From assembly GCA_000165345.1 (NCBI GenBank), contig CM000435.1, positions 320,001 to 384,000 of the forward strand: a stretch of DNA of 64,000 bases, in the 5' to 3' direction. Position numbers and translations under genes: made by a program. This document shows positions 13,911-43,521 of this stretch, piece by piece. The notes under the pieces were generated by a model that worked only from the letters and a program-made list of their open reading frames with translations, had not been told where the DNA came from and did not search any database. Each line of letters begins with the position of its first letter. Position 1 is the stretch's first letter.

Positions 13911-14717
13911 AATCATTAGCAAGCTATTCCACAGATTTGGGATAGATCCCATGGTATTTTATCTTGATTTCTCTCAAATCTGGCTGGTGAAATTTTTGTA
14001 TTTATAGTCTGTTTTTCTGTGAGGTTACAGCCCCTGCTAATTTTTAATTTCATTTATTTATCCGGTTTTTAACAAGTGTCGTAACATCTCCCCCTGAAGG
14101 TTAAGTATTTGTTCTTTTATAATGGTTTTTAGTTGCTGTTGTAGACTGAATTTTTGTTTTGTGGTCATCCGTCTTTAATCATCTGAATGTTTGTGTATAG
14201 TGTGCTGTTGCGTTTATAGGCCAATTTTTTCTTCAAATTAACCTTGAATCTATGATTCATCCTGTCTTTATTCTCAAAATCTCTCTTTTATTCATTTTGT
14301 TTTACTGCCTTTCTATTCTACCTGTTTTTCCTAACTATCATTTCTCCGATACTATTTCATTCATTTAACACCGGTACCATATGTGTACATTTCCCGCCTA
14401 AACCCTCAACCTGTAAATTACATGTAAATAATGCATTTGCACTAAAATAGTAAAGAATATAATTGCTTATTGCTATTAAAGAGAGTGATCGAATTTGGGG
14501 ATAAAATTAGTTTTAATTATAGAAGCATTGATATTGTCTAAATTTAAATACAAAATTATATTAAAGTAAAAGAATGGCATGGCTCGTATGAAAAAAGTGA
14601 GGGATTCCAAAGGAATTAAAGATATGGTTAAAAAAAAGATATAGAATAAAAGAGGGATAAAAGAGATCCATTTCTCTTATTTTAAGAAGTTTTGTGATTT
14701 TAAATAAAGTTTTTGAT

Positions 14718-16457
14718 ATGCTGAGATTTTTCTTGAATTTTGTAATTACATTCTTGTCATTAAGCTTTATTATTAATCAAGCTTATTGCATTAGAGTTGA
14801 ACCAAGAGTGACTAGTCTTTTAAATACTCCAATAAATGAAAACATCAGTGAGAGTCAATCTTGTGTGTTACAAACATTGAAAGAGTTAGTATCATCTAAT
14901 GGAAGAATTCCACCCAAAATTACTAAAAAAAGAATTCAACAAGCTGTACTTACTTGCAGGAAGAAGTTAGCTGCATGTGAATATCCAACCATAGCAGAAG
15001 AAACAATATTTATAACTTTAGGCCAATATGGACATCTATCTCAAATAGATACAGTTAAAGCTTTAAGTTTTATTAATGAAATTCAAAAAGGAATAACAAG
15101 TACTGTTGGATCTTATACACGTATGTATAAGTTAAGTCAAAACAATAATTTCTGTAAGCTATATGATGACTTTATCTTATCGGCTTATCCAAAAGAGTAT
15201 TATGTTTCATTTCTTCCAGAAGGTGGAGAAAGATGTCAGGAATTACTTAATAGATTAAAACAAAATGCATTCTATTCGTATTGGGGACAAGGAGGAATTG
15301 TAGCAGACCAAGCTCAACCAATTGTTGATGATAAGGTTTCAAATGACCCAATTAAAACCAAGGATATGGTTATAAATAATATTTTTGAAAATCCTCCAAA
15401 CAAAGAAACTCAAATAGAGGAATTTTCTAAGCCTGAAAGTGAAACCAATAATAAAACTGATTATAATAATGAAAATGAATATGAAAATGTTATTCATACC
15501 AAACAAGAAATCGACCATTTTGAACAAGAAATTGTGGAAGATTCCGGATGTTGTTCTTGTTGTTCTTGTTCATCTAAAAGGACAAAAACCAAGAAAGGAG
15601 AGAATAGTCAACCTCCAAAATTGGTTGACAGTTCTATGACTGAGGAAGAGTTAGAGTTGATTCGACTTGAACAAGAACTTGAGAAGGAGAATTCTGGTTG
15701 TTGTTCTTGTTCTAGTTCCAATAAAAAAAAGAAAGAAAAGAAACAAGTTAATGGGAATGAAATGTCAAATGATATTCTCCAAGATGGAATTATTAATAAT
15801 GAATTGAAAATGCACGAAGATAATAAAAATGAAGAAGACAATTCTTGTTGTGCCTCTTGTAGCTCAAAGAAGGAGAAAAAAAGCAAAACAAAAAATAAAG
15901 AAAAGGAAGTACAGAATGGTGAGACACAAAGAATGGATGAACAAACTCCCAAAACACTCGTTGAGACTTCTATGACTGAGGAAGAGTTAGAATTGATTCG
16001 ACTTGAACAAGAACTTGAGAAGGAGAATTCTGGTTGCTGTTCTTGTTCTAGTTCCAATAAAAAAAAGAGTAAAAATGAGAAAAAAGATAAAAAACAGAAA
16101 AAGGGTAAAGATGAACAGGACAAAAAGGAAGAAAAGTTTGATCAACTACTAGAAGAGCAACAGGAGGGTGAGGAACCAATTGAGGGAAACAAAAAAAGTA
16201 AAAAAGATAAAAAAGCCAAAAAAGATAAAAAGGATAAAAAAAGCAAAAAGAGTAAGAAAGATGAAAATGGAGTCCTAGTCAATTCTTTGCCTGAAGATAA
16301 AATGGAAGGTAAGAAATCAAGTTGTTGTTCAAGCTCTTGTAGTAGTAGCAGTGATAAAGCATCTGATGAAGAGTTAAAGGAGTTAGCTGAGTTGGAGAAG
16401 AGACTTCAAGAGGAAGAAGAAATGCTCCTCCAAAAAAAAAACGGGTTAAAAACATGA
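14718..16457 (+). CDS. Secreted repeat protein with Cys-cluster motifs (GCCSCCSC/CCSCSSS), a duplicated ~35-aa unit and a Lys-rich tail
   Basis: The track start 14694 is GTG; the first ATG is at 14718 (MLRFFLNFVITFLSLSFIINQAYC, a signal peptide). The unit SMTEEELELIRLEQELEKENSGCCSCSSSNKKK occurs twice. CC-S-CC clusters occur five times. The C-terminus has K-rich runs (KKDKKAKKDKKDKKSKKSKK). Confidence 0.7.
   Translation: MLRFFLNFVITFLSLSFIINQAYCIRVEPRVTSLLNTPINENISESQSCVLQTLKELVSSNGRIPPKITKKRIQQAVLTCRKKLAACEYPTIAEETIFITLGQYGHLSQIDTVKALSFINEIQKGITSTVGSYTRMYKLSQNNNFCKLYDDFILSAYPKEYYVSFLPEGGERCQELLNRLKQNAFYSYWGQGGIVADQAQPIVDDKVSNDPIKTKDMVINNIFENPPNKETQIEEFSKPESETNNKTDYNNENEYENVIHTKQEIDHFEQEIVEDSGCCSCCSCSSKRTKTKKGENSQPPKLVDSSMTEEELELIRLEQELEKENSGCCSCSSSNKKKKEKKQVNGNEMSNDILQDGIINNELKMHEDNKNEEDNSCCASCSSKKEKKSKTKNKEKEVQNGETQRMDEQTPKTLVETSMTEEELELIRLEQELEKENSGCCSCSSSNKKKSKNEKKDKKQKKGKDEQDKKEEKFDQLLEEQQEGEEPIEGNKKSKKDKKAKKDKKDKKSKKSKKDENGVLVNSLPEDKMEGKKSSCCSSSCSSSSDKASDEELKELAELEKRLQEEEEMLLQKKNGLKT
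15627..15735 (+). repeat. Copy 1 of an intragenic ~105-bp direct repeat (copy 2 at ~15958-16065)
   Basis: Near-identical nucleotide stretches 'tctatgactgaggaagagttaga(g/a)ttgattcgacttgaacaagaacttgagaaggagaattctggttg(t/c)tgttcttgttctagttccaataaaaaaaag' are seen twice inside the 14718..16457 CDS. Confidence 0.7.
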
Positions 16458-16938: not shown

Positions 16939-19900
16939 CTAAAACTTTGTAAGATTCTTTTCAGAACTTATTAAATCTGAAATATTGGCTATAATTGGCC
17001 ATTTTACATCAAATGCAATAGTTTTGTTTCTATTATATAAAATAGTTGAGTTTGTATTAGGGTTTTCTGACCCTGTATAACTTTCATTATAATCTTTTTT
17101 ATAAAGATGTCCTAAACCTCCAAAAGGTGGATCTTGAGATGGAGGAGGAATTTGGAGGTGATCATTTGTGTAAGATATTAGCTCTTGAGCAAGATTGACT
17201 GAAGTTAAGTTCTTAAATATATTTCTTTCCTTGATAAATAAGTCTAATAACTCTGATGAAATCATTTCTGAAATTGAAATATATTCACCAACAGTGCAAT
17301 TATTGTTGAACTCAATATTAGAATTATTATTAGAATCAATATTAATACATTTTGAAAATTCAGAATTCAAGAATATCTTATTTTTCAATTGGATTATAAA
17401 GTTTAAACTTTGAATAAGGGTAGGAAGAGCTTCATTTGAAATGTTTGACTTATTAATCTCATTAAGTTTTTGAGAAATAAAAGAACAAACATGTTTAACA
17501 AACCAATTAGAACGTCTAACTTCAATTGAAGAATTGTATTTAATCTTAGAAAGAGTATCCACAGCATTATTTAAGGTAAATAATGGATCCAATGATGGTA
17601 TAACCAAATCTTTAATTAGACTTTGTATGTCAGATTTATTCTTTAATTTTTCACTAGAACAGAAATCTGATAATACTTGACTAATTTTCATAAACTTTGC
17701 TCCACTTGTATTATATAAAGTGAATTTATTCAATTCACCAAGTATCTTAAGAATTTCATTATTTCCATAAGGTTGTATAATAATCTTTTCTAATGAGAAA
17801 TTACATATTACTGGTTTTGAATCATTCTTCATTTGAATATTAGCACTATAAGTATTTTTTGGAGTTCTTATAATAGAAATATCATAATCTCTTTTAAATC
17901 TAAATCTTTGAAGGAATTCTAAAGCTCTATATGAAATAAGTATTTGATAAGAATGTGATCTTAAGATACTTTCAATTATTGATAATACAAGAGTAGGATA
18001 TGAAATCCAAACCATAGAAAATACCTCATTTTGAAAGTTGGTTACTTTTGAAACCAAGTTTGAGACACGATGATTTGATGGATTAATCATAAAAAAGACA
18101 TTTTCAGATAAAAGTCCAGTTTGTACAATACTTGAGATTTGTTTTGAAAGATCACTTCTTTTTTCACTTAATGGTAAAAAGTATAAGTTCTTATCAGTAA
18201 CAAAAAGTTCTTCTTTTTCTAAAGTTGAAATTACTCTGGCATGAACCTTTCTAGTATTCAATTTTGAATGGAAAATAAACATCTTAGGAAGAACTGGTAC
18301 AGTTTTCAAACTTATATCATCTTTTAGATCAATTTCTGGATTTAAAATTATATTATCCATATTTCTAATCTTTGATTCTAATTTCCAAAATTCTAAAGCA
18401 TCTTTTTTATGTTTTTCAATCATTGAAACTGCTTCATTATTAAATTTATATGTATATTTTGAAGTATCATTAATTCCAAAGTACCAAAGTACATCATTAA
18501 AAGCAAAAGTATTGTTACTTTGATTAACAAATGTCATATTCATATTTAAAAATAATCTTCCATCAACAATGATCTTGAAAACTGTTTCGTTAGTTAAACT
18601 TTCATCTTGAGTTTGTTTTGAACATAACCATCCCATCGAATTCTGAGTTTCTAAATTTGAAAGATTTGTCTCATTAGAATAAAGTACACAAGGATCTAAG
18701 AATTGAATAAAATCAGAACTGGAATTTTTTAATTGTGTTGAGTTATTATTCTGAATAGTACGAACAATATAGGAAGAAATTGGGCCATCTCTAATAATTT
18801 TTGAGCTTGAGACATTATCACAATCAATTTCTGAACTAAATTTTAAACAAAAGCTGATAATTCTTTGTAAAGCTGCTAAACCCATTAAGTCTATCAAGAT
18901 TTTATCAAATTCTTTTGAGAAAGTATCATTTTGTAATATCATTTCTGATTTAGAATGATTCTTTCCAATCAAATTCTTGTTATTTTCTTCATTTTCAGTA
19001 ACTACTAATTGATTTACTTCTACCCAATCTAAAACATTAGATGGATTTTTTTCTTTAGGAACATCAATTGATCCAAATATTAGCTTATTTTTATCATATT
19101 TTAAGATCTTATCTTTATTTCCATTTCTAGACATATTTGATTTAGAATTGATTACTGATAAATGATTTGAACAAGGAAGTGAATTATGATCCGAAATTTT
19201 TTTAGAATTTGAGTTTACAGTAATACCAATTTCATTATTTGTATTATCAAAATTTTTATTAATATTTGTAAATTTTCGATCAAATGTTTGATTATTAAAT
19301 AGAGCTGACCATTCTCCCCAATATGTTTCATTAATTTTTGTAACAACTGGTAAAAATTCTTGTATTGTTGAAGAAACATTATTAATTGATATATTTAAAG
19401 CTTCATTTTCTTCAATATGACATTTAGTTAAATTTGAAACTCTAAAAAGTTCTCTTAGTTCAGCTTCAATAACACTATCCTCGGATTTTAGTAGAGACGG
19501 ATCAGAATCTGCATGCGATAAATGAAGATAATGACAAACTTTTTTTGAAAATAAAATATTTGATAACCAAGAACAAGGAAGTTGAGATTTTGGAGGTAAT
19601 TTTCTTCCATATTTTAAATGATAATATGAAGTACATGGTTTTAAAACTTCATCATTAGTAATAAGATCAACATATCTATCCCAATTATCAGAATGTATTT
19701 TTAGTTTTTTTAAAATTGAATCTTTGAGTTTGAAAGAATAATCACTAAATTCTGAGATTCTATCAGGATTACTGGAAGTAATCCAATCAGAAACAATGTT
19801 ATTTCCAAAAATAAGATTCTTTGTTTCTTTTAAGAAGAAATCTTGTAAAGTATTTAAAGTTTGAGATAGAGTGTTAGAGATAAGAATAATATTACTAAGT

Positions 19901-21390
19901 AATCTTGCAGAAAATCCTTCAGCATCTGTTAAATATACCGGACATGGATGAGTTCCAACAAGTTTATCAATTGGAACAGGAAAATCTGATTCCTTAAGTT
20001 CAACAGCATCTTCCAAATCAATGATTTTAAGATCTTTGTAGAAATCTATATCAAGTATATCTTTATATGTGAGATTATAAACATTATTTTCAGTTTTGAA
20101 TTGTTTTGAAATATTTACCAAAATATTTCCTTGATGAAAATCACAATGAATTCTAAAAGATCTAAATCTTTTCCACTTTCCTCTTGAAAAATCTTCTAAT
20201 TCTTCTGGATAGAATGATGTTCCTCCTCTATGAAATAGATCCAAAAGATATAATAATCTTCTATAAAGATTTACTGAGAAAATTATTGTTTTATCAGTAT
20301 AATTATTAATCCAAATATTTATAGAATTCTCCAAAAGTCTTGCTTTAGATTCTACATTAATCTTCTCATCTGACCTTAATGAAGGGAACTTGGAGTCATA
20401 GATTCGAATACTTTCTTCTAAGATTGCATTTACTCTATTTTTTAAATAATTTAAGAGATTTGGATAATCAATAAGTTCTGAAATTATTGAAGAAATTGCA
20501 GGACCATCAATAAACTCCATTAATAGAACATTTCTTGAAATCATTTTTCGATTTGGTTGTAAGAATACGCTATATATGGATGGATGAAGCTTAGATTTAG
20601 AAGCACCATATGTACTTGAGGCCATTCTAGAGTAAATGATCAACTCATGATTAAAATGGTAAAGAAAGTCGTTGGTTCTTCCATCAACTTTTGCTACAAT
20701 TTTCAAAGGAAACTTCTTGGCTTTGTTTGAATGAAGGCATCTCACTCTTAGAGATGATTTCTTTCCGAGTTCATAGACACACCCAGTAAATAGTTCAAAT
20801 CTCTCTTTCTTTTCCTTTTCCTCCTTTTCCTTTCCCTCATCTTTTCCCTCTTCTTTTCCCTCCTTCCCTTCCTCTTCTTTACTTTTCTTCCCCTCATCAC
20901 TCTCCTTCCCCTCATCCCTCCCCTCCCCCTCCTCCTCATCCACCTCCTCCACAGGACTCTTTATCATTGCAAAAATTGTCGAAGCTTCCTTTCCTTGAGA
21001 AGATACCAAAAGCTCTCCAGTCGATGAAACTTTTGGACAATCAATTATGCCCGAAAATTCATTACAAAAATCTTTAAGTCTTAATATACTACATTTCTTA
21101 TAAACCTGACTCAAATGTTTATACCTCTTGTAAAAAACCATTGGAGCATACCAAGTATTTTCTTGTCCTTCTGGAATAAAACATAAATTAATTCGCCTCA
21201 ACTTATCCATTGTTACCACTAAACCATCATCTTGAAAACTATTATTCTTTTCCTCTAGTAATACCTCATTCTCGCTCCCATGAAGCCCAAATAACCTTAT
21301 ACTCCCCTCTGCATAAATAGATCTCGTGATCGGGCACAATACCAAGCAAAATGAGTACACCAAATGAAGTATTTTCTTTCTAATCCTCAT
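16939..21390 (-). CDS. Large (1483 aa) signal-peptide protein with a choline-kinase/aminoglycoside-phosphotransferase-like kinase fold and an acidic EGKE low-complexity insert
   Basis: ATG at 21390; the N-terminus MRIRKKILHLVYSFCLVLCPITRSIYAEG looks like a signal peptide. A kinase-like core is present: KIVAKVDGR (beta3 Lys), LLMEFIDGPAI (hinge), IHCDFHQGNILVN (Brenner HxDxxxxN catalytic loop) and KIIDLEDA (ChoK/APH-type 'IDxE' metal-binding motif in place of DFG). The low-complexity segment is EEGKEGKEEGKDEGKEKEEKEKKE. Confidence 0.55.
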   Translation of the reverse strand: MRIRKKILHLVYSFCLVLCPITRSIYAEGSIRLFGLHGSENEVLLEEKNNSFQDDGLVVTMDKLRRINLCFIPEGQENTWYAPMVFYKRYKHLSQVYKKCSILRLKDFCNEFSGIIDCPKVSSTGELLVSSQGKEASTIFAMIKSPVEEVDEEEGEGRDEGKESDEGKKSKEEEGKEGKEEGKDEGKEKEEKEKKERFELFTGCVYELGKKSSLRVRCLHSNKAKKFPLKIVAKVDGRTNDFLYHFNHELIIYSRMASSTYGASKSKLHPSIYSVFLQPNRKMISRNVLLMEFIDGPAISSIISELIDYPNLLNYLKNRVNAILEESIRIYDSKFPSLRSDEKINVESKARLLENSINIWINNYTDKTIIFSVNLYRRLLYLLDLFHRGGTSFYPEELEDFSRGKWKRFRSFRIHCDFHQGNILVNISKQFKTENNVYNLTYKDILDIDFYKDLKIIDLEDAVELKESDFPVPIDKLVGTHPCPVYLTDAEGFSARLLSNIILISNTLSQTLNTLQDFFLKETKNLIFGNNIVSDWITSSNPDRISEFSDYSFKLKDSILKKLKIHSDNWDRYVDLITNDEVLKPCTSYYHLKYGRKLPPKSQLPCSWLSNILFSKKVCHYLHLSHADSDPSLLKSEDSVIEAELRELFRVSNLTKCHIEENEALNISINNVSSTIQEFLPVVTKINETYWGEWSALFNNQTFDRKFTNINKNFDNTNNEIGITVNSNSKKISDHNSLPCSNHLSVINSKSNMSRNGNKDKILKYDKNKLIFGSIDVPKEKNPSNVLDWVEVNQLVVTENEENNKNLIGKNHSKSEMILQNDTFSKEFDKILIDLMGLAALQRIISFCLKFSSEIDCDNVSSSKIIRDGPISSYIVRTIQNNNSTQLKNSSSDFIQFLDPCVLYSNETNLSNLETQNSMGWLCSKQTQDESLTNETVFKIIVDGRLFLNMNMTFVNQSNNTFAFNDVLWYFGINDTSKYTYKFNNEAVSMIEKHKKDALEFWKLESKIRNMDNIILNPEIDLKDDISLKTVPVLPKMFIFHSKLNTRKVHARVISTLEKEELFVTDKNLYFLPLSEKRSDLSKQISSIVQTGLLSENVFFMINPSNHRVSNLVSKVTNFQNEVFSMVWISYPTLVLSIIESILRSHSYQILISYRALEFLQRFRFKRDYDISIIRTPKNTYSANIQMKNDSKPVICNFSLEKIIIQPYGNNEILKILGELNKFTLYNTSGAKFMKISQVLSDFCSSEKLKNKSDIQSLIKDLVIPSLDPLFTLNNAVDTLSKIKYNSSIEVRRSNWFVKHVCSFISQKLNEINKSNISNEALPTLIQSLNFIIQLKNKIFLNSEFSKCINIDSNNNSNIEFNNNCTVGEYISISEMISSELLDLFIKERNIFKNLTSVNLAQELISYTNDHLQIPPPSQDPPFGGLGHLYKKDYNESYTGSENPNTNSTILYNRNKTIAFDVKWPIIANISDLISSEKNLTKF

Positions 21391-22217: not shown

Positions 22218-24232
22218 ATGATTGGGTCAAGAAAATCTAAGGAAGAGTTATACTATAAGATTTCTTTAGTAACAACAATACTTATATTCTGGATTTGTTC
22301 AAGATCTGTAGGTAAGTTGAAATAAAAATAGAAATAAAATAAAACAAAACAAAACAATTCAAATCCCAAATCAACTCTTTAATTTATATATTTGTAGTTT
22401 TATCTATATCTCTCACAACAATATTCTTAGTTTTGTCTTATATTGGAAATAAGTTTGTTTTTGGAACAAAATCTAAATATGAAGAAGATTTACCAAGATT
22501 GATTTCAGATAATGTAATTTTGAAAAAAATCTATGAATTTATTACAAATGGAATTCTTGTTAATTTTGTTTTATCTATTATATATATTACATTATATTTC
22601 ACATTAAGATCAGAAATTAAAGGAATAGAAGTTATTCACAGAGGCATTTTTGATCATTTAGCTCCAAAACTTGCAGAACATTCAAGAAATCTAATAGAAT
22701 CTGGTGAAGGAAAATTTGAAGTTATCTCAAGTAATAGAAATTTTGATGGTATTAGTTTAATTATACCAATTAGAGATGAAGATGAATTTATTAGTAAAAC
22801 AATTTCTTTTACTCTTGGTTTAAATAATAAGAACTTACTTAAAGAAATCATTGTTGTTGATGATTGCTCTAAGAGAGAAGTTTCTGATTTACTTAATAAA
22901 GAACTTCCAAGTTCTTATTTAAAATATATTAAAGTTATTAGATTAGACAAATGTGAAGGTTTAATTAGAAGTCGAATTCTTGGTGCTGATGCTTCTAAAT
23001 CTAGTGTAATAGTATTTATGGATGGTCATTGTAGGCCTAAAGAAAATTGGATTGAACCTTTAATTAATAGACTTAAAGAAAAACCAAAAGCTATAGTTTG
23101 TCCAATGATTGAAGATATAGATAGATATACTTGGAAAGATTTAGGTACTTTTGGATTAAAAATGATGTTTGATTGGAATTTTGAATTTAATTGGTATGAA
23201 GATTTTACTGATGTAATTCCAATAGCATCAGGAGGATTATATGCAATAACAAGAGAATGGTGGGAAGAATCTGGTAAATATGATCCAGGAATGTTAGAAT
23301 GGGGAGGAGAGAATATTGAACAATCAATAAGAATTTGGAGATGTGGAGGAGAAATAGTAGCAGAAAAGAAGAGTAGAGTAGGACATATATTTAAAAGAGA
23401 TCCAAAACCTAATCCAGAGAATAAATTAGTTTTACAAGTACAAAGAAATCAGAAAAGAGCTGCAATGGTTTGGTTAGATAAGAAAAGATATAAATACTTT
23501 GAGACAATTCATGATGTTGTGAAAAGTTTGAATGAAACTCAGAGTGGTGTAGATTTGGAACAAAGACATAGCATTAAAGAAAGATTAAAATGTAAACCAT
23601 TTTCTTGGTATGTTGATAAATTTAGAGCTTCATTTGATAGAGGTGGTTTGCTATTGGATAACTTTAGACATTTTAAACATAGAAAGAGTGGACTTTGTTT
23701 AACAGCTTCTTTAAATGAAGTAGTTACTGGAACAGAAGATAAAGCAGTAGTATTTAAAGAATGTAATGAAAGAGATGATACTCAGAAGTGGAATGTAATA
23801 TTAGGAAGGAGATTAATATTAAATAGAAGAGTAGGATTAGGATGTCTCACAAGGGGACCAAGTAATGTAGTAGAGAATTCAATTTTAAGAGTAGTTCCTT
23901 GTGAATTTAAGAAAGCTTTAGAAGGTTATAATGACTCACAATATTGGAACATAGATGCTAATGATGATTTATTATTTGATCATGGTTATGAAGATTTATC
24001 TCCAATGGAATCTTCAAAGCTTAGAAACTCACTAAGATTGTTTAACAGAATTAATAGTATTCCATTTAGTAATGATGGGAATGATAGAATTTCTGTGAAT
24101 GGAGAATATGCTTTTAATCCATCAAATAGATGTGTCACAAATTTGAATGATAAAGCTGTAATGAAGAGTTGTCCACATGAAGAAAATGAGGACTATATAT
24201 TTGACCCAATAAAGATGGGGAAGTTTATGTAG
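22218..24232 (+). CDS. UDP-GalNAc:polypeptide N-acetylgalactosaminyltransferase (GT27 catalytic domain + C-terminal ricin-B lectin), two-exon model: exon 1 22218..22311, intron 22312..22397, exon 2 22398..24232
   Basis: The catalytic domain has the GT-A DxH-type region (VVDDCS...FMDGHC) and the pp-GalNAc-T Gal/GalNAc-T motif WGGENIEQSIRIWRCGG. A C-terminal beta-trefoil lectin region has Cys pairs and QxW-like repeats (QKWNV, QYWNI). The long ORF has no in-frame ATG before the catalytic domain (the track start 22433 is TTG). An upstream ATG at 22218 encodes MIGSRKSKEELYYKISLVTTILIFWICSRSV, a short tail plus hydrophobic anchor expected for a type II Golgi transferase. It ends at a consensus donor AG|GTAAGT (22312). 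An AT-rich 86-nt intron ends TTTGTAG| at 22397 and restores the downstream frame exactly (phase 1). Confidence 0.75.
22312..22397 (+). other. Predicted 86-nt spliceosomal intron (GTAAGT...TTTGTAG) near the 5' end of the ppGalNAc-T gene
   Basis: The donor gtaagt and the acceptor after a T-rich tract preserve phase between the exon-1 ATG ORF and the catalytic-domain ORF. Confidence 0.6.
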
Positions 24233-24621: not shown

Positions 24622-26184
24622 TTAATTTGCATAAGTTATTGGAAAAAATGACATAAAAGGACAAAAGTCTTTATTTCCACAATTATTTTTAGTTTTAGGT
24701 GAAATCATGGGAGATGAATTTGAATAATAACTTGAAGATTTTGAAACAACCCATGAATGTTTACTTGGATGAATAGTAAAGAAAGGATGTTTTAAAGCAT
24801 CTTTTGGATGTATTCTAAATTTGTAATCCAAAGTAAGAAGTTTTGAAAGTAAATCAAGAGCTTGAACAGTAACTAAATCTTGATTTTCTTGAGTAATTAA
24901 GAAATCAAAAGTTCTTGGATCAGTAAAAATTGGACTTGTTGAATTAAAGATTTTTTTGGTTCTTTTAAGATAAGAAAAAGTAATATCATCAGAAATTGTT
25001 CCATTATATTTATTAGATATAGAAATAATATTATCTCCTCCAAGTAATGAAGCAATTTTAACAATTTGGTCATTATTGTCCCAACCTGGAAAAAGTACAT
25101 CAGGACTTAATGAATTCTTAAGAAAAATACCAACAAATGTTTTTGGATATTTTGTAAATACTCTAGTAAAATAATTGGTCTTTAAAGTACCTAATCTGAA
25201 AAGCATTTGTGAGAATAAACAACCTACTGACCAAGAATCCACAGAATAATCATAATTTCTGATTCCTAAAAGAAGTTCTGGTGCTTTATAATATTTGGAA
25301 GCAACTCTTGGACTAAAATCAGGATCATCTTTTGAATAATATTCTGCTAATCCCCAATCAATAATTTTTAAAGATTCTTTATTTATATCAATTACAATAT
25401 TTTGTGGTTTAATATCTCTATGAAATACTCCTAAAGAATTTGCATAAGAAAGTCCTTGTAATAATTGTCTCATGTAATTTTGAAGATCTATATATGTAAG
25501 TTTTGGAAGAAGTGAATAAAATTGTTCATTATTAATATATTCCATAACAAGTCCAATATGTTTTTTAACACTAATAGATTTTTGATTCAAATTTTTTATT
25601 GGATTATGATATTTAACAATATCTAAAAGTTTTATAATCGAATTTTTCCCTTGTATTTGATCATATAATTGTGAATTTTCTAATAATAATGTTTGATTAA
25701 CATGATTATCAGAATAACCATTAAGTAATTTAAGTATAGAAACTTCTCGAATAATTTTCCATTCTTGTACATTCTTTAATTCTTTTAAAGCAACAGGAAA
25801 ACCTCTAAGAGAACTAATTTGATGATCTGTTAAATTAAGAAAATAAGGATCAATAACAAGTGTTTCTTCTCCAATCTTATTTTTTGTTTCTGGACTTAAA
25901 TCAATTTTCCATGCAAAAAATACATTTGAATATCTTCCTGTTCCTATAGTATTTCCTTTAATATAAAAATTTTTTCTTGAAAGTCGACTCATTTCTAAAA
26001 TATTTTCCAAAGAAGAAAAATCTTCATGACTTTCTACAATATTTCGAGGATGATTTGATTTAGGTATTTTATTATCTTTTTCTTTATTAGTATAATTTTC
26101 ATTATAAGAATGAGAAAGAATAGAAAAAGAAAGTTTTTGAAGAATAACTAACAAAATGTATAATATTAGTAAAATCCTAAACAT
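24622..26184 (-). CDS. Casein kinase 2 alpha-like Ser/Thr protein kinase carrying an N-terminal signal peptide/anchor and ~100-aa N-terminal extension
   Basis: ATG at 26184. The N-terminus MFRILLILYILLVILQKLSFSILSHS is hydrophobic. Kinase motifs match CK2alpha: GTGRYSNVF (Gly loop), VALKELK, HRDIKPQNIVID (CK2: HRDVKPHNVMID), DWGLAEYY (CK2: DWGLAEFY), RVASKYYKAPELLL (CK2: RVASRYFKGPELLV), GWDNNDQIVKIASLLG (CK2: GHDNYDQLVRIAKVLG) and ENQDLVTVQALDLLSKLLTLDYKFRIHPKDALKHPFF (CK2: [37 protein letters not shown]). Confidence 0.75.
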   Translation of the reverse strand: MFRILLILYILLVILQKLSFSILSHSYNENYTNKEKDNKIPKSNHPRNIVESHEDFSSLENILEMSRLSRKNFYIKGNTIGTGRYSNVFFAWKIDLSPETKNKIGEETLVIDPYFLNLTDHQISSLRGFPVALKELKNVQEWKIIREVSILKLLNGYSDNHVNQTLLLENSQLYDQIQGKNSIIKLLDIVKYHNPIKNLNQKSISVKKHIGLVMEYINNEQFYSLLPKLTYIDLQNYMRQLLQGLSYANSLGVFHRDIKPQNIVIDINKESLKIIDWGLAEYYSKDDPDFSPRVASKYYKAPELLLGIRNYDYSVDSWSVGCLFSQMLFRLGTLKTNYFTRVFTKYPKTFVGIFLKNSLSPDVLFPGWDNNDQIVKIASLLGGDNIISISNKYNGTISDDITFSYLKRTKKIFNSTSPIFTDPRTFDFLITQENQDLVTVQALDLLSKLLTLDYKFRIHPKDALKHPFFTIHPSKHSWVVSKSSSYYSNSSPMISPKTKNNCGNKDFCPFMSFFPITYAN

Positions 26185-35443: not shown

Positions 35444-36987
35444 AATAGCATTACAAAGGAAAGAAAGAGAGAGCTAATTGATTGAAACACTTTCTGTCAG
35501 TTGATTTATTGTAAATGACGATTATCTTCTCAATTAAATCAGCTCAACTGGTTTTGAAAATGCATCTAACTTTGGCATTATATACATAGAAATAATAATA
35601 ATAATAATAATATACATAGGTTGACTTCTTTTGTTTGTATTTTGATTGAAATTAGTAGGTAAAATGAAATAAATATACATATATATATGCTTAAAAGTCA
35701 GACATTCAAATAATGTTAATCTACCAAAATAGTTAATTTTACAATATGCCAAAAACTAGCAATGACTTCTCCCTTCTTGGCAATTTGAAAACTAAAGTAA
35801 AAATAAATACGGTGTGGCGCCGGCGCTTGATGTGAGGCTCAATAATTAATTCTTTGCATTAATAAAAGAGGGAAAAAAGGAAAATAAAACTTAAGTTACT
35901 GAAAACAACTCAGAAAAAACAGCTGTTAAATGATTTAATGAGAACTATAAGATTAAGAGTTGGCGATTGAGTCTGCCCTTTTTAAAACTGTTCAGAGTTT
36001 AATTTTCTACGAAAAGATGCATGCAATAAATCGCCATACTTGGCGCCCAAAAGGATTGAGTCAAAATAGTTTAATACTGGAATAGAGAATTTTATTATAT
36101 TTCCTATTATGAAACTAGAACGTTAGACATGTGCTTCACGTAATAAAAAAGAAGTCAAACTGTACAAGGTATAATATCTGCTTTTTGCGTCGAGTAGAAA
36201 GGAAGGAGAGACACTTTACTTTTTCTCAAAGATTCTAGAGAACTATATCTTAGTTCAAAAAAATCTATTAAAATAATTCGAACTTTTTTTTTTAGCTATT
36301 GTATAGAATACGTTTGAATGCCACATGGAATCAAATAAAAAGCGTTTTACCGTTTATTGAGTGTAATTTGACTATCAGAGTAAATAATTAGATGTCAGGA
36401 AGTAGTTTACTTGGCTCTACACAACTGCACTCATACTCAGTAATACGCATTACGAATTATCTGAAGTTAAGGGAGTCTTTGCCACCTCCAACTCTAAAGC
36501 TCCTTTTTACCATTCATTAGAAAACTTACAATGGCGTAAAGGATTCGGAAAGCGGCTTCCTCGAAACCTAAAGCCAAAAGTAATCACATTTTTTTAAATT
36601 AGTTTTCGTGATTTGTACAATTACATAAATCTATTGGATTCTACCTCGTTTAGATTTCAGTAAAGTCAACTAAAATTTCCTATAATGATCCTAATTGGAA
36701 ATTTAAACTAGTAATCTACATTTTGTATGCCTTATGAATCCATTAATCTCCTTATCACTTTACATTATTTTATTCCCCTCTTCGTCTTAATTGCCCATAC
36801 CCTCACTGGAACGGCTACGTACCGATACTCGGGCGCGCAAATCTTGGCGCCGCGCAGACTATATGAGGAGCTTAGATAAACTGAATATAGTGTGAAATAA
36901 GACCTGGAGTGAAAATTGGAATTCATAACAACATTGAAAGAGAATAAGGAGAATGCAAGGAGAGATTCAGGATAGGAAGGTTCATTG

Positions 36988-39900
36988 ATGATGACCACAA
37001 GGTACAGTTTTCTTCATGCTCTTATTTGCATTTGGTTATTATTTCGGATTATTTTGGAACCGGTTAATGGCAAAAATGACTCAAAGTTCAAGTTTGGACC
37101 GCAGCATCCTCCTCATGATAGAACAGTTATCACTGACTTTGATAACTATGCGATTCAATATTGTGGTCTAAAGGACTCAGTTTTTAACGTAGCTCATTGT
37201 ATTTTTCATGCATTTGTTGAAATACTTGAAGAAAGGGAGCTCAAATATGAGGATTATGAGAGTGTTATTAATTTGTTACTACAAGGAAAGAATCTAGCAT
37301 CTCACCAGAAGTTAATTTCTTCTACAAATAGTTGTCAAAGTATGGTTGTCCCATATATTAAATTTTCTAAGCCTAAATCTTCAAAATCTATTATGGGAGT
37401 CAAAATTTCTACAAAGATTGAGGATTATTGTAAATTTGCCTTTAGATGTATTAGTAATGGGTCAAATACACTTGTTAAAAGCAAACAGTCTGTTATGCAA
37501 GAACACCTTGGAAAATGGATTGGTACTTCTTTGAAGGAAAATGAGGGTTTTGGCATAGTTATAGCTTCTAGACTTGATTTTCGGATTTCTCAGCTTAAAG
37601 TCCGTTCAAAAGAACCAAATGAACTTTTAAAGATTGGATGCAAACTTGCATCAGAGTCTCCATCAAAGAGAGAGTCTCTTTGTATGGAGATCTTTAACAA
37701 CAAAGAAATTTGTTCTATTGTTGCCCCTTATAAGTTATCATTTAAAGGCTGGTCTCATCCTCCTATAGATCCTATTCAAAATAAGCCTTTCAAGTTTAAT
37801 CCTAAGACTATGATCGATGAGAAAATTAAGAGTATTGTAAATATTCAAGTTAATGAAGAGCTTCCTCCTTACTGTATGCCTCAAGAGATTTTTTCTTATA
37901 AACCTCCTCCAGAAACCTATACTAAAGAAAAGAAGATAATTCATTTTTATACTGATATAAGCCAAACTGAAAAAGCTATTATTGACCAATTTCTAATGCA
38001 TTTTGTGATTAATTATGGTAAAATCCCAAGAGTGATTTTTGATAGAAGATCTAGATATGCAATTGAAGGATGGCTTTCACATAAAAATAAATCTCCAATC
38101 ATCTCAGTACATAACTCCATGTATTCTTTAGGAAGAAAGCTCCATTACAAGGATGCAATGAGTGGAATGTTATATTCAAATTCAGGATATAAAAAAGAAA
38201 CTTATCCTTACAATCTTCCTCAATTTAAAATATTTTCTGTATATTCTGATAAAACACATACTTTTGATATTAGTGACACTAATCCACTGATCTCCACTTG
38301 TTTAAAAGAAGGATGTGCCTATTTTATAGGAAGAAGTGCTTCAATGACTCCAGTTTTAGTCATCAGAGCCTCGACAATAATATCAATAAAGAGTTTTAAA
38401 CAGTCCTCAGCATCTTTCCTTGTCATGTTTTTAATGGAATTTGCGGAAAAGTATTTGTTTTTCCCAGGAAAAGTTGAAACTATTGACATTATTGTTGACT
38501 GTAGAGGTTTCTCGCTTACAAACTTTTCAACTCTATTAAGAATCAAACCAATCCTTCTATATTGGCAGGATGAAGGTATTGTTAATCAATATCCTTTGAG
38601 ATTCAACAACATTTTTATCATTCAACAAAACGATATCTGGACTACCTTGAAAGACATTCTTGGAAGATTCTGGCTAGAAGAAACTGTTAAGAGTGTCCAA
38701 GTCATTAGTAATGTCTCCAATAATCCCAAGGATAATCCAGATCTTAAGCTTCTTTGGAGATACATTTCTCCGCACTTAATTGAAATTGATATAGGAGGTT
38801 CCAGACCCAAGTTGCAAAGTGGTCAATTTTACCCATTTAAGATCTTGCCAGGCCCATATAAGCCTTTCAACACTAATCTACTAGACCCTAAAGTCACTCC
38901 AACTCTTAGTGACTGGCCTAGTCCTGATTTTAATTCACCCAAAAACCTCTACAAGCTCCTTCCAAAGAACTTCTTCCATTCAAGGGAAAAAACCCTGGAT
39001 GGGAATGAGAATGTTGCTCCCATCAACTGGAAGGAATCCAAGCAGCTTTTAAATAGTATTCCAAAGAATCTATGGCCAGAAATGTCAACTCCAACATCAG
39101 AATTTAAATCAGAAGATAACTTAGAAAATAAGGCGGACTCTAAAGGTTCTTTAGTCTCAGAAAACAAAGGAGAAAAGAATGATATTGAAGATCCTCAAGA
39201 TACTCAAAACAGAAATGACACTTCAAAAACAACCATTGATACGGAGAAGCTCACAAAGAGTACCCCTAGAAGTATTAATACTTTAAGCAGCGGAAAAGAT
39301 AGAGATCTACTTCTTCAGTTATTACTTACTCAGAAAATGCTCGGTAATCTCAAAGAGTTCCACTCCCTCCGCCTTGAGAAAATCAAGAACAAGCGTAATT
39401 TGGAAGAACAATGTATTCAACTTGCAACCACACATATTACATTCTTCTCAAAATTGGTCGATAAAGCTCATATTGAAATTTTGAGTAAAGTTGCTAAAAT
39501 GAAGCAAAACAAAAAGGCGCCAAATATGCCGCAAGTTGACAAAAGGTTATCCATTTTTGAAGCTTATAAAGATATTGCTTCAACTTTAAATCTTAGTAGA
39601 GCTAAGAATATGTTATCTGAAAAGAGTTTAAGCTATTTAGAACAAATTGGACGCAAGATTTCAGGAATTGAGACCAAAATCAACAAAGCAAGGCAGGAGA
39701 TTAGAATTCTTTTAAAAGAAGATCCTAGCGTATTGAAAGAAAAAGCTTCATCAGCTTGGAACGAGCTCTTGACCGCTTTAAATGAGCTTGGTGAACTTAG
39801 AAAAGGAATGAGTGATATAGAGATTAAAGAGAAGAAGATAAATATTAGGCTAAGACAAATGTGTGAACAACTTACCTCCTCAATGGGTGTAACAAAGTCA

Positions 39901-40026
39901 TTTTTAGATAGCTACAGTAAATATGACCACTATAGTATGTTCGAGAGTTCTCTTCTTTATAATATGATTAATACAATTATTAAAGGGCAAGAGTATTCTT
40001 TTGAGAACTCAACTAATGGAAAATAA
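36988..40026 (+). CDS. CRAL-TRIO (Sec14-like) lipid-binding domain protein with N-terminal hydrophobic segment and C-terminal coiled-coil region
   Basis: The track start 36985 is TTG; ATG is at 36988 (MMTTRYSFLHALICIWLLFRIIL). The Sec14 signature region is FLVMFLMEFAEKYLFFPGKVETIDIIVDCRGFSLTNFSTLLRIKPILLYWQDEGIVNQYPLRFNNIFIIQQ. The C-terminal third is heptad-like (KINKARQEIRILLKEDPSVLKEKASSAW...). Confidence 0.6.
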   Translation: MMTTRYSFLHALICIWLLFRIILEPVNGKNDSKFKFGPQHPPHDRTVITDFDNYAIQYCGLKDSVFNVAHCIFHAFVEILEERELKYEDYESVINLLLQGKNLASHQKLISSTNSCQSMVVPYIKFSKPKSSKSIMGVKISTKIEDYCKFAFRCISNGSNTLVKSKQSVMQEHLGKWIGTSLKENEGFGIVIASRLDFRISQLKVRSKEPNELLKIGCKLASESPSKRESLCMEIFNNKEICSIVAPYKLSFKGWSHPPIDPIQNKPFKFNPKTMIDEKIKSIVNIQVNEELPPYCMPQEIFSYKPPPETYTKEKKIIHFYTDISQTEKAIIDQFLMHFVINYGKIPRVIFDRRSRYAIEGWLSHKNKSPIISVHNSMYSLGRKLHYKDAMSGMLYSNSGYKKETYPYNLPQFKIFSVYSDKTHTFDISDTNPLISTCLKEGCAYFIGRSASMTPVLVIRASTIISIKSFKQSSASFLVMFLMEFAEKYLFFPGKVETIDIIVDCRGFSLTNFSTLLRIKPILLYWQDEGIVNQYPLRFNNIFIIQQNDIWTTLKDILGRFWLEETVKSVQVISNVSNNPKDNPDLKLLWRYISPHLIEIDIGGSRPKLQSGQFYPFKILPGPYKPFNTNLLDPKVTPTLSDWPSPDFNSPKNLYKLLPKNFFHSREKTLDGNENVAPINWKESKQLLNSIPKNLWPEMSTPTSEFKSEDNLENKADSKGSLVSENKGEKNDIEDPQDTQNRNDTSKTTIDTEKLTKSTPRSINTLSSGKDRDLLLQLLLTQKMLGNLKEFHSLRLEKIKNKRNLEEQCIQLATTHITFFSKLVDKAHIEILSKVAKMKQNKKAPNMPQVDKRLSIFEAYKDIASTLNLSRAKNMLSEKSLSYLEQIGRKISGIETKINKARQEIRILLKEDPSVLKEKASSAWNELLTALNELGELRKGMSDIEIKEKKINIRLRQMCEQLTSSMGVTKSFLDSYSKYDHYSMFESSLLYNMINTIIKGQEYSFENSTNGK

Positions 40027-41354: not shown

Positions 41355-42371
41355 TTATGCCTCATTTAATAAAGTTGAAGGCTCCAATTTACACTTATTG
41401 ATACGTTGTTCAAGATTGTAAAGTCTCTTAATAGCGGTGTAAAGTTCAGAAATATCATCCCAATTAAAAAAGAAACAAGTAATGCCCGAAGTGACGGTAT
41501 TGAAGCATCTAATAATAGTGGCCCTCCCCCCTATGGTGATGTCTTTTCTAACAATAGCTGGAATTAAAAGTATAGTTGGTAGAAATCCAACAAGACTCCC
41601 CAAGCTTTCGCTGATTAAGCTGTATCTAAAAGAGTACAAATAAATATCACTATGAATCAACTTGAGCTCATCAACAAGAGTATCTTCTATTAGTGACAAG
41701 TTAAGTCTTGGAATACCTTCTTCACCCAAAATAAGCTGTTTTCTAAATTCAGCTTCAACAATCTCCTTTCGCATGATTTTAGAGCTCATTTTCCTGGATG
41801 TGAAATAAACCCCAAGAATCGAAACTGAAATCGATATAGCAAGATAAGAAATAAGAGAATATTCAAATCCACTTGGAAACGGTGGAATTCCTGAAACTTT
41901 CCTACTATGTTCAATCAAAATTGGAATGTGAACCAGACTTCTTGAAATAGAAATCACAACTTTAAAGAAAAGATTCAAAATAAGCTTCAAAACCTGAAGA
42001 GTATCTTCCTGGATTCTTTGAGACACTCCTTCCACTCCTTTAATGAATCTCCAATTATCAAATAAGTATTTTGACTCATAATTACGCCAATTAAGAAGTA
42101 TTACTGTTAGGAAGAAATTACTTAATACTCTAAATACACAGAGGAATATGAGGAATAATGGCAGATTTAGCATTTTTTCCCTTATTTCATCCTCATAACT
42201 CTCCCCAGGTTTTGAGTTGAACGAACTGACCAAAAGATTGTATATTTCAGAGAACCATTTTGTCACTTTCAAATGAAGCTTTGAATATTGCACATTCAGA
42301 ATGATTAACAAGAAACAGTAAAACCAAGTACTTGCAGAGTACCTACTGGAGAAAAGAAATTTCCTAATCAT
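41355..42371 (-). CDS. SbmA/BacA-like (ABCD-type transmembrane-domain-only) membrane protein, paralogue A
   Basis: The track start 42434 is TTG; the first ATG is at 42371 (MIRKFLFSS...). It is ~338 aa with several hydrophobic helices. The conserved loop WRNYESKYLFDNWRFIKGVEGVSQRIQEDTLQV resembles the ABCD/SbmA 'NPDQR(L/I)xxD' region. The EAEFRKQL and C-terminal IKRLYNLEQRI stretches parallel the ABCD1 TMD E(A/G)EFR and helix-6 regions. There is no Walker A/B or ABC signature. Confidence 0.45.
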   Translation of the reverse strand: MIRKFLFSSRYSASTWFYCFLLIILNVQYSKLHLKVTKWFSEIYNLLVSSFNSKPGESYEDEIREKMLNLPLFLIFLCVFRVLSNFFLTVILLNWRNYESKYLFDNWRFIKGVEGVSQRIQEDTLQVLKLILNLFFKVVISISRSLVHIPILIEHSRKVSGIPPFPSGFEYSLISYLAISISVSILGVYFTSRKMSSKIMRKEIVEAEFRKQLILGEEGIPRLNLSLIEDTLVDELKLIHSDIYLYSFRYSLISESLGSLVGFLPTILLIPAIVRKDITIGGRATIIRCFNTVTSGITCFFFNWDDISELYTAIKRLYNLEQRINKCKLEPSTLLNEA

Positions 42372-42519
42372 ATTTCCATTTTTTTGTCTTAATGGCAACT
42401 TCGATTTACAAAATGTCAAGTCGTATAGCGCCAACTATTGTTTCAAGTATGTCTAATCAGTTAACTTCTAGACAAGAGACTACAGAGAGAAGAGATAGAA
42501 GGGTTTTAAAGTAGCAGTA

Positions 42520-43521
42520 ATGATTCTATTCAGTGGCCTCAGCAGAAGATCTCTTATCAAGTTGTTTCTCTTTTTGGCTGCAATTTCCGCATGTTCAGTA
42601 CTTCTGTTGTACTTGGAGTTTTCTGGGAACTCTCAACTTAAAACATTTGGAGATGTGTTACAAGCAGCAGTTAAAGATAGGTCAAGTGTTAGTGCTTCAG
42701 ACCTGTACACTTCGTTTTTTGCATTGATTTCTTACAAGCTAGCCGTTGTATTTTTGAAGTCGGTATCTTCATTTCTGTCCAAGAAGAGTATTTTCTTTTG
42801 GAGACTGCAACTAACAGAGTATTTCTTAGAGAACTGGGAGAATATTTACTTAATTGAGGGAGTGTCTCAGAGGATTCAAGAAGATACTATGAGATATTGT
42901 AGACTTTTTGAGAAGTTTTCAATTTTTGTTGTACAGGATTTATTCAAGCTTTTTATATACTTGCCTTTATTACTTGATCTAAGTAAGCATATAACAAGAA
43001 CATGGTTTATACCCAATACAAGGCATTTATTACTTGTTTTGATTATAATTAACTCCATAATTGGAACTTCCATTATTATTTTCCCAAGTAAATACTTATC
43101 TAGGCTCGTTTATAATATAGATAAGGAAGAAGCTGCATTTAGAAAGAACTTGGTTTTATTTGAACTTGAAGAAAGAGACTTTTCTAACTTCGACTTTGAT
43201 GGGAATTACATTAGTGTGGATAATACTCACAGAAGCTACTACAGAAGGTATTATTTTATTAAAATCCTCCAATTATTGCATTTTCGCCTGTCGATGATCA
43301 CTTATTGGTTGTTTGCTCATCCATCAATGGTACCTCCTTATACTCTAGGTCTTCTTAAACAGACAATGCATGCATTTGATGAAGTCTCATCAGTATTTAA
43401 CTTTGTGGTATCTCATTTCAAAAGCTTAGTAGAGTACATTGCAGTTTTTTTGAGATTAAATTTAATGGTTAAGCAAACTATAAAAGCTAAAGAAACCGAT
43501 AAATCTGGGATTTATCATTAA
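42520..43521 (+). CDS. SbmA/BacA-like (ABCD-type transmembrane-domain-only) membrane protein, paralogue B
   Basis: ATG at 42520. It shares the block ...NW(E/R)N.....EGVSQRIQEDT with the divergently oriented neighbour, plus EEAAFRKNL and LKQTMHAFDEVSSVFNFVVSHFKSL. It is 333 aa, with no ATPase domain. Confidence 0.45.
   Translation: MILFSGLSRRSLIKLFLFLAAISACSVLLLYLEFSGNSQLKTFGDVLQAAVKDRSSVSASDLYTSFFALISYKLAVVFLKSVSSFLSKKSIFFWRLQLTEYFLENWENIYLIEGVSQRIQEDTMRYCRLFEKFSIFVVQDLFKLFIYLPLLLDLSKHITRTWFIPNTRHLLLVLIIINSIIGTSIIIFPSKYLSRLVYNIDKEEAAFRKNLVLFELEERDFSNFDFDGNYISVDNTHRSYYRRYYFIKILQLLHFRLSMITYWLFAHPSMVPPYTLGLLKQTMHAFDEVSSVFNFVVSHFKSLVEYIAVFLRLNLMVKQTIKAKETDKSGIYH

Follow-up and report, generated by a model that had tools for sequence, protein, structure and literature searches.

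The stretch of DNA analysed here (the window) comprises the 64,000 nucleotides (nt) of contig CM000435.1, assembly GCA_000165345.1, from position 320,001 to position 384,000, and comes from chromosome 7 of Cryptosporidium parvum Iowa II. The gene under study is a single open reading frame (ORF) at 16939..21390 on the minus strand, which in the ORF listing of the window starts with ATG and encodes 1483 amino acids (aa). An earlier note, drawn up from the letters of the DNA, had described this ORF as a signal-peptide-bearing protein with a kinase core of the choline kinase (ChoK)/APH type; the ORF itself was recovered exactly, together with orthologues. The product is 100% identical to the C. 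parvum Iowa II 'hypothetical protein' EAK90187.1/Q5CYR5 and has full-length orthologues (identity 37–92%) in at least nine other Cryptosporidium species, so the ORF is a real gene. The orthologues were taken from C. parvum, C. hominis, C. tyzzeri, C. meleagridis, chipmunk genotype I, C. ubiquitum, C. felis, C. ryanae, C. xiaoi, C. serpentis, C. muris and two further assemblies. The gene is almost certainly cgd7_1300, as deduced from gene order and annotation strings rather than read off a record: the original strings run in the order cgd7_1290 'containing a signal peptide', cgd7_1300 'containing a signal peptide', cgd7_1310 'glycosyltransferase and ricin domains' and cgd7_1360 'Sec14d', which agrees with the order of the genes in the window. 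Neighbouring ORFs match by sequence the published alignments of cgd7_1320 and cgd7_1330.

Orthologues of the protein have already been named 'protein kinase-like domain containing protein' by automated pipelines in other databases. The published C. parvum kinome (73 eukaryotic protein kinases, ePKs, plus 4 atypical kinases) lacks cgd7_1300, neither Q5CYR5 nor cgd7_1300 was found in the main texts of the literature searched, and cgd7_1300 was not found in the searched supplements of secretome papers. The wording 'secreted kinase' in a genetic-cross paper was set aside, as it refers to Toxoplasma ROPs and not to this gene. The features of the gene and of its product are the following:

16939..21390, minus strand: complete coding sequence with stop codon, 1483 aa, probably cgd7_1300 (UniProt Q5CYR5, EAK90187.1).
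21310..21390, minus strand: probable signal peptide, aa 1–27 (MRIRKK / ILHLVYSFCLVLCPI / TRSIYA, with EG after the cut), by heuristic n/h/c-region analysis.
20956..21213, minus strand: conserved Cys-rich N-terminal extension, aa 60–145, with invariant C70, C100, C109 and C118 and a GKEASTxF strand, by conservation.
20806..20955, minus strand: E/G/K low-complexity insert, aa 146–195, in the parvum/hominis/tyzzeri lineage only, with 0% invariant columns.
20497..20805, minus strand: kinase-like N-lobe, aa 196–298, with 52% invariant columns, by hhalign on the N-lobe alone.
20278..20496, minus strand: helical insert of ~73 aa, aa 299–371, between hinge/αD and αE, predicted as confident long helices in both AlphaFold2 models.
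20113..20277, minus strand: αE (LYRRLLYLLDLFH), a conserved 22-aa loop and the catalytic loop RIHCDFHQGNILVN, aa 372–426, by hhalign to ePKs and by sub-threshold ABC1/APH matches.
20032..20112, minus strand: 27-aa insert that separates the catalytic loop from KIID and carries the invariant sequon N439-L-T, by alignment conservation.
20005..20031, minus strand: LKIIDLEDA, the longest invariant block, with the putative metal-binding (DFG-equivalent) D458, by invariance and by pairing with LKIIDWG of the neighbouring ePK.
19516..20004, minus strand: remaining C-lobe, aa 463–625, with ESDFPVPxD, HPC483P, a DAxxFxxR helix, more helices and invariant C586, C606 and C619, by conservation and AlphaFold2.
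18916..19515, minus strand: poorly conserved N/S-rich linker, aa 626–825, with 8% invariant columns and a sequon cluster.
16942..18915, minus strand: conserved C-terminal region of ~660 aa, with eight invariant Cys (and a ninth in 9 of the 11 orthologues) and many N-glycosylation sequons.

Both motifs singled out in the earlier note were found again, the catalytic-loop motif HCDFHQGNILVN at aa 415–426 (window 20113–20148) and IIDLEDA at aa 456–462 (window 20005–20025). The motif type is H-x-D-x-H-x-G-N followed by hhh-D-L-E-D-A, and not HRDLKxxN...DFG...APE. The N-lobe shows a β1–β2 hairpin FxGCVYELG (without GxGxxG), the β3 Lys, the αC Glu E249 and a hinge LLMEFIDGP. The ~73-aa helical insert is weakly conserved beyond the intestinal species and is the origin of spurious coiled-coil matches. 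The ~850 residues outside the kinase-like domain consist of the N/S-rich linker and the Cys-containing, sequon-rich C-terminal region; for these residues neither relatives nor a family could be detected, they do not resemble the kinase profile, and the C-terminal ~660 aa gave no match in Pfam, NCBIfam or PDB.

The fold of the putative kinase region was examined by profile–profile comparison with hhalign, using as the query an 11-sequence alignment of the domain (A2, aa 196–520). Against a panel of 45 proteins (all the long ORFs of the window, 24 proteins of one Escherichia coli K-12 locus and the target's own C-terminus), the known kinase folds took ranks 1 to 4, with scores of 32.7 for UbiB, 31.9 for SrkA, 30.8 for cgd7_1320 and 29.4 for cgd7_1330 (P 0.001–0.006). 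The best score among the other 41 proteins was 20.5 (P 0.037–0.84). Under random ranking, the chance of four kinases at ranks 1 to 4 is 1/C(45,4), about 7e-6; among the other ORFs of the window, Pfam scans revealed no further protein kinase. With a diverse ePK reference profile, made of 120 STE-group kinases 28–38% identical to the seed, the domain (aa 196–520) aligned with a probability of 89% and a score of 49.4 (P 2.3e-6), the catalytic half with 93% (P 2.9e-7), the 63-residue catalytic segment with 95% (P 2.5e-8) and the N-lobe alone, in the correct β3–αC–hinge register, with 29% (P 5.8e-4). In a repeat comparison, the domain reached 88.4% (P 2.8e-6) and the N-lobe 31% (P 5.2e-4). The positive controls reached 49% (SrkA family, P 1.7e-4) and 95% (UbiB, P 2.3e-8). 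Concerning the negative controls, the reversed query scored 14.8, 40 column-shuffled queries 17.6 ± 4.3 (maximum 31.1), four other regions of the same family at equal phylogenetic depth 11.5–16.5 and seven unrelated proteins 12.9–19.9; the query score of 49–50 is thus 7 standard deviations above the shuffles.

The alignments were colinear along the kinase core. ELGKKSS fell at the position of the Gly-loop, FPLK on AxK, HFNHE(249)L on the αC Glu, LLMEFIDGP on the hinge IvMEYcxGGS, LYRRLLYLLDLFH on the αE motif VLxGLxYLH and IHCDFHQGNILV on IHRDIKxxNILL. In the alignment to cgd7_1320, DLKIIDLEDA stood opposite SLKIIDWGLA, with a gap that spans exactly the insert of the query. AlphaFold2 models, computed with 11 related sequences, were of low confidence: predicted local distance difference test (pLDDT) 51.9 and predicted template modelling score (pTM) 0.47 for aa 60–640, pLDDT 58.3 and pTM 0.61 for aa 196–625, and pLDDT below 50 for the N-lobe. 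In these low-confidence models the order of elements fits that of a kinase (β1–β2, αC, β4–β5, αD, long helices, and strands before HCD, after N422 and at LKI). Foldseek searches with them returned no kinase among the matches, a result that is inconclusive because the models are poor. Altogether, it is very probable that aa ~196–625 have a kinase-like fold, and as judged from profile alignment the motif region is homologous to the protein-kinase-like fold. The broader claim of the earlier note, that the protein belongs to the kinase-like clan, therefore survives, on hhalign probabilities of 88–95% against the ePK profile (P 2.8e-6 to 2.5e-8) and on the independent signal of the N-lobe.

The narrower claim did not. 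HMMER searches of Pfam, NCBIfam and PDB gave nothing significant, whichever query was used: whole protein, whole-family profile, domain, catalytic half or N-lobe. The matches to Pfam ABC1 (PF03109; 15.3 bits, E 0.012, over 17 residues of the catalytic loop) and Pfam APH (PF01636; 11.7 bits, E 0.22, with 0.063 for the best member, over 18 residues) were below the respective gathering cut-offs of 22.9 and 23.2, and the full-length protein gave no APH match in the Pfam scan. The choline/ethanolamine kinase family (PF01633) gave no match at E ≤ 10 with either the full protein or any of 11 domain sequences, and Pkinase (PF00069) gave no hmmscan match with the full protein or the domain sequences. 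FAM20 (PF06702) and FAM69-DIPK (PF12260), compared at the level of Pfam only, gave no match at E ≤ 10. The earlier note had expected a match to PF01636 or PF01633 and had itself named the lack of a significant one as evidence to the contrary; APH stayed sub-threshold and PF01633 was absent, so membership in APH/ChoK fails. Its wording 'ChoK/APH/ABC1 type' holds at the level of the motifs only, which are SrkA/APH/ABC1-like, and not as family membership. In an exhaustive HMMER search, the profile of the putative kinase region was run against 1.84e9 representatives, one per 50% cluster of ~15 billion proteins: three clusters matched, all of them from Cryptosporidium, with no metazoan protein among the relatives. 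As far as homology searching goes, the cgd7_1300 family is restricted to the genus Cryptosporidium among the sequences searched, and it is defensible to regard it as a new family of the kinase-like superfamily with catalytic motifs of the eukaryotic-like kinase (ELK) type. Rfam gave no RNA family within the window.

With respect to catalysis, the residues K234, E249, H415, C416, D417, H419 and N422 and the block K455-I-I-D458-L-E-D461 are invariant across the 11 orthologues, while C. ryanae has Arg at the place of K230, the alternative β3 Lys. Conservation peaks in the N-lobe, where 52% of the columns are invariant and the C. parvum and C. muris proteins share 66% identity; the αE/catalytic segment comes next, with 38% and 59%, and the linker and C-terminal parts show 8–20% invariant columns. 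Since the catalytic residues are (nearly) invariant and the N-lobe is conserved best, an active nucleotide-binding enzyme is favoured over a decayed pseudokinase, an option that the earlier note had offered and that is now disfavoured. Conservation of this kind makes it reasonably likely that the putative enzyme is catalytically active. D458 of KIIDLED aligned with the DWG of cgd7_1320 in one alignment and with subdomain IX in another; a β-strand is predicted before KIIDLED in the low-confidence AlphaFold2 models, and the KIIDLED segment alone gave no significant match to kinase profiles. The role of metal-binding (DFG-equivalent) Asp can be proposed for D458 from its invariance, the shape of the motif and one of the two alignments.

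Concerning the routing of the protein, the N-terminus MRIRKKILHLVYSFCLVLCPITRSIYA, with EG after the cut, displays by heuristic analysis a basic n-region, a hydrophobic core of 15 residues and a small-residue (-3,-1) site after A27. Nine of the 11 orthologues have a hydrophobic N-terminus, its character kept and its sequence diverged (C. serpentis ...NVALA, then DT). The C. muris gene model (L085 10001) seems to be 7 residues short compared with C. serpentis (MFSIIFL-IYIGNI...), and the Logan-derived orthologue P0006 lacks a hydrophobic N-terminus; both N-termini are probably those of truncated gene models and not real losses of the signal peptide. Two independent sources annotate the protein as signal-peptide-containing. 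The signal peptide of the earlier note thus finds heuristic support in the n/h/c features, in the character shared across species and in these two annotations.

Other signatures of folding in the endoplasmic reticulum (ER) are found in the rest of the sequence. No type of residue is better conserved than Cys (83%, with Trp at 67% and Gly at 44%): once the signal peptide is set aside, 20 of 22 Cys are invariant, an even number. From composition, 20.5 ± 4 NxS/T sequons would be expected, and 38 are present; all 11 orthologues show an excess (z 1.3–5.2), and ten sites, among them N439-L-T in the kinase domain, recur at the same position in at least 8 of 11. The protein contains no convincing internal transmembrane (TM) segment, no KDEL/HDEL and no GPI-like C-terminus. 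A TM helix at aa 831–849 was considered and not accepted (borderline Kyte–Doolittle value of 1.85, with D, Q and R in it). From these sequence features, a secretory protein is the likely assignment.

The E/G/K-rich insert (aa ~146–195, window 20806–20955) is encoded by imperfect purine-rich repeats of 6–18 nt. Its length varies among C. parvum, C. hominis and C. tyzzeri, and it is absent from C. meleagridis and all the more distant species. Judging from the repeats and the alignment, it is a lineage-specific low-complexity microsatellite expansion in the loop before β1. The acidic insert pointed out in the earlier note is therefore present, but its interest is lost: being confined to the parvum/hominis/tyzzeri lineage, with variable length, it is no functional hallmark.

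The gene lies head-to-head with a polypeptide N-acetylgalactosaminyltransferase (ppGalNAc-transferase) gene, with ~0.83 kb between the start codons, an arrangement conserved in C. muris. In an oocyst microarray, the two genes of the pair are both in the lowest (unexpressed, L0) class. The neighbours on this side are:

22218/22433..24232, plus strand: cgd7_1310, ppGalNAc-transferase with GT2, Glyco_transf_7C and ricin lectin domains (Pfam).
24622..26184, minus strand: cgd7_1320, CK2-like protein kinase (Pfam Pkinase 2e-38; C. muris L085 5871–7424).

In the public gene model, cgd7_1310 begins before its longest ORF does, from which a short intron can be deduced. cgd7_1320 is reported to be without orthologues outside Cryptosporidium, and its N-terminus is signal-peptide-like in C. 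parvum (MFRILLILYILLVILQKLSFS) and in C. muris (MYIRIFIYIYLGILLKIIGLCC); by these N-termini it may be a second secretory kinase, beyond the GalNAc-transferase. The whole cgd7_1300–1320 block is syntenic in C. muris. It is suggestive of a neighbourhood for the modification of secretory cargo, adjacency being weak evidence in a compact genome.

Other genes of the window complete the picture. cgd7_1290 (14694–16457, plus strand) encodes a Lys/Glu-rich signal-peptide protein with repeated blocks (two copies of TEEELELIRLEQELEKENSGCCSCSSSNKKK), CCSCCSCSS clusters and no Pfam family; an antisense ORF of 171 aa at 15608–16123 looks like a low-complexity artefact. Positions 1 to ~12350 of the minus strand contain no listed ORF of at least 150 aa, because the start of the window truncates a giant gene, 4157 aa long in the public model and with no recorded Pfam annotation. 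cgd7_1360 (36985–40026, plus strand; 1013 aa) has a CRAL/TRIO (Sec14) domain and an annotated signal peptide, and is described as 'probably secreted'. A divergent pair of genes at 41355–42434 (minus strand) and 42520–43521 (plus strand) encodes SbmA/BacA-like membrane proteins (Pfam E 2e-38 and 5e-49); this family is more familiar in bacteria.

We favour, with a probability of roughly 0.55, the interpretation that the product of cgd7_1300 is a soluble protein of the secretory pathway, confined to Cryptosporidium, with an active divergent kinase-like domain that acts on secreted proteins or glycoproteins. The signal peptide would be cleaved near A27, and folding would take place in the ER lumen, with the formation of about ten disulfides and the addition of several N-glycans. 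Residues ~196–625 would form a highly divergent protein-kinase-like domain, interrupted by two lineage-specific inserts, with K234 (or K230) as the β3 Lys, E249 in αC, D417 as the catalytic base and N422, both in H-C-D-F-H-Q-G-N, and D458 in KIIDLED. The product would be an active ATP-dependent phosphotransferase, at work within the secretory system or, once released, outside the parasite. Several observations weigh against this interpretation. HMMER against Pfam, NCBIfam and PDB gave no significant match to any kinase family, and the confident hhalign stretch covers only ~18–22 residues, though the N-lobe gives independent support. The β3 Lys is ambiguous, hhalign aligning K230 rather than the invariant K234; the DFG-equivalence of KIIDLED is ambiguous between alignments; and there is no canonical GxGxxG motif. 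Lastly, cgd7_1300 transcripts were only at background in oocysts.

The same fold and location could also serve a glycan, a lipid or a small molecule as the substrate, possibly the O-GalNAc mucin glycans made by cgd7_1310. Most enzymes of the APH/ChoK type, and the secretory sugar kinases POMK and FAM20B, act on non-protein substrates, and in cgd7_1300 the HxDxHxGN loop and D-L-E-D are like those of SrkA/APH/ABC1, the sole Pfam signals are ABC1 and APH, and no APE or activation-segment signature was aligned. The GalNAc-transferase head-to-head at ~0.83 kb, kept in C. muris, and the background level of both genes in oocysts point the same way. However, the motif type does not fix the substrate, SrkA, with the same motif type, being annotated as a stress response kinase in E. 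coli K-12 and phosphorylating proteins; adjacency weighs little in a compact, fully syntenic genome; the oocyst L0 class holds many genes; and the strongest profile match was to protein kinases, though with reference profiles of unequal depth. A non-protein substrate is thus possible but rather unlikely.

Doubt may also be directed at activity or at the fold itself. FAM20A and many Toxoplasma ROP pseudokinases are kinase-like folds without phosphotransfer, and a pseudokinase or scaffold, its fold kept in order to bind nucleotides or ligands or to interact with proteins and its real function carried by the C-terminal region, would agree with the lack of a GxGxxG loop, the extreme divergence of a domain with two inserts and the ~850 further conserved residues. 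It is nevertheless improbable, as the Lys/Glu/Asp/Asn/Asp set is kept (K230 excepted) in orthologues just 37% identical, whereas pseudokinases usually miss at least one of these residues, and the invariant columns amount to 52% in the N-lobe and 38% in the catalytic segment versus 8–20% elsewhere. As for the possibility that HxDxxxxN and IDxE are a chance likeness in a novel helical, Cys-rich secreted protein, it would account for the failure of HMMER, and of Foldseek with low-confidence models, to find a kinase, for AlphaFold2 models made mostly of long helices and for the one column-shuffled control that scored 31. It seems very improbable in view of an hhalign score of 49–50 at 7 standard deviations above the shuffles, of two non-overlapping halves that match the kinase profile colinearly, of four kinase references that outrank 41 controls and of the kinase-like superfamily name given independently to the orthologues by other databases.

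If the favoured interpretation of an active secretory kinase is true, a genus-restricted, disulfide-rich kinase with an intact catalytic set would add luminal or extracellular phosphorylation to the secretory biology of the parasite and, having no host homologue, would offer a parasite-specific candidate at which tagging, knock-down and inhibitor studies could be aimed. To our knowledge, Cryptosporidium has no recognisable Toxoplasma-type rhoptry kinases. It could be speculated, with little probability, that cgd7_1300 founds a group of Cryptosporidium-specific luminal or secreted kinases and forms with cgd7_1310 and cgd7_1320 a conserved cluster that phosphorylates mucin-type glycoproteins, or their O-GalNAc glycans, bound for the parasite surface, the host–parasite interface or the oocyst wall. 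On a more general level, the case shows that a domain may hold every catalytic motif and yet be tied by HMMER to no kinase among 1.8 billion sequences. As the kinase-like and signal-peptide labels pre-exist in pipelines, what is added here is evidence with controls, a description of the anatomy and the limits of the family, and not a first sighting.

Compared with known systems, the catalytic loop of cgd7_1300 (HCDFHQGNILV) is of the form HxDxHxGNILV, like those of SrkA (HGDCHAGNILW) and UbiB (HADMHPGNIFV), to which it aligns with hhalign P values of 1e-3 to 4e-4. As in SrkA (LHGDCHAGNILW...FVDLDDA), an acidic D-L-[DE]-D-A stands in place of DFG and, as in SrkA/APH/ABC1-UbiB generally, GxGxxG and APE are lacking. 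Unlike the members of these families, cgd7_1300 has a signal peptide, 20 invariant Cys, inserts of 73 and 27 aa and ~850 extra residues; it stays below the family thresholds, and the exhaustive HMMER search found no relative in those families. The ePKs (STE-like cgd7_1330 and CK2-like cgd7_1320) gave its strongest profile–profile match, with reference profiles of unequal depth. Because the ePK and APH/ChoK profiles are not depth-matched, the higher ePK score provides no classification. The hinge, the αE (LxYLH-like), the β3–αC register and the N-lobe are ePK-like, while HCD for HRD, His for the catalytic-loop Lys, DLE for DFG and the absence of GxGxxG and APE are not.

Among apicomplexans, the ROPK, WNG and FIKK proteins are recognisable ePKs, restricted to coccidia or Plasmodium. 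It is established that ROPK/WNG of Toxoplasma and FIKK of Plasmodium are signal-peptide kinases delivered to secretory organelles or to the host (cited in PMC12590416, refs 33–34). cgd7_1300 differs from them in having no Pkinase match and no detectable relative in any other apicomplexan. In metazoans, FAM20, FAM69/DIPK, PKDCC/VLK and POMK are, according to passages of PMC3696010 and PMC7948968, Cys-rich, signal-bearing or anchored, luminal or extracellular, and were found by profile–profile methods. No sequence relationship with these kinases was detected by Pfam or by the exhaustive HMMER search, and cgd7_1300 has no significant EF-hand, the EF-hand_13 matches in an insert (E 0.05–0.14) having been dropped as insignificant; the likeness is one of concept, namely a signal, abundant Cys and a very divergent kinase-like domain. 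FAM69A has a Cys just before the catalytic Asp, with a predicted C293–C331 bridge to the activation-segment region (PMC3696010). In cgd7_1300, C416 (window 20143–20145) is directly before D417, and the invariant C483 (HPCP, 19942–19944) is in the region equivalent to the activation segment, a pair that parallels by analogy the bridge predicted in FAM69A and that may be convergent. Functionally, the metazoan secretory-pathway kinases come closest to cgd7_1300, through a resemblance that is possibly convergent.

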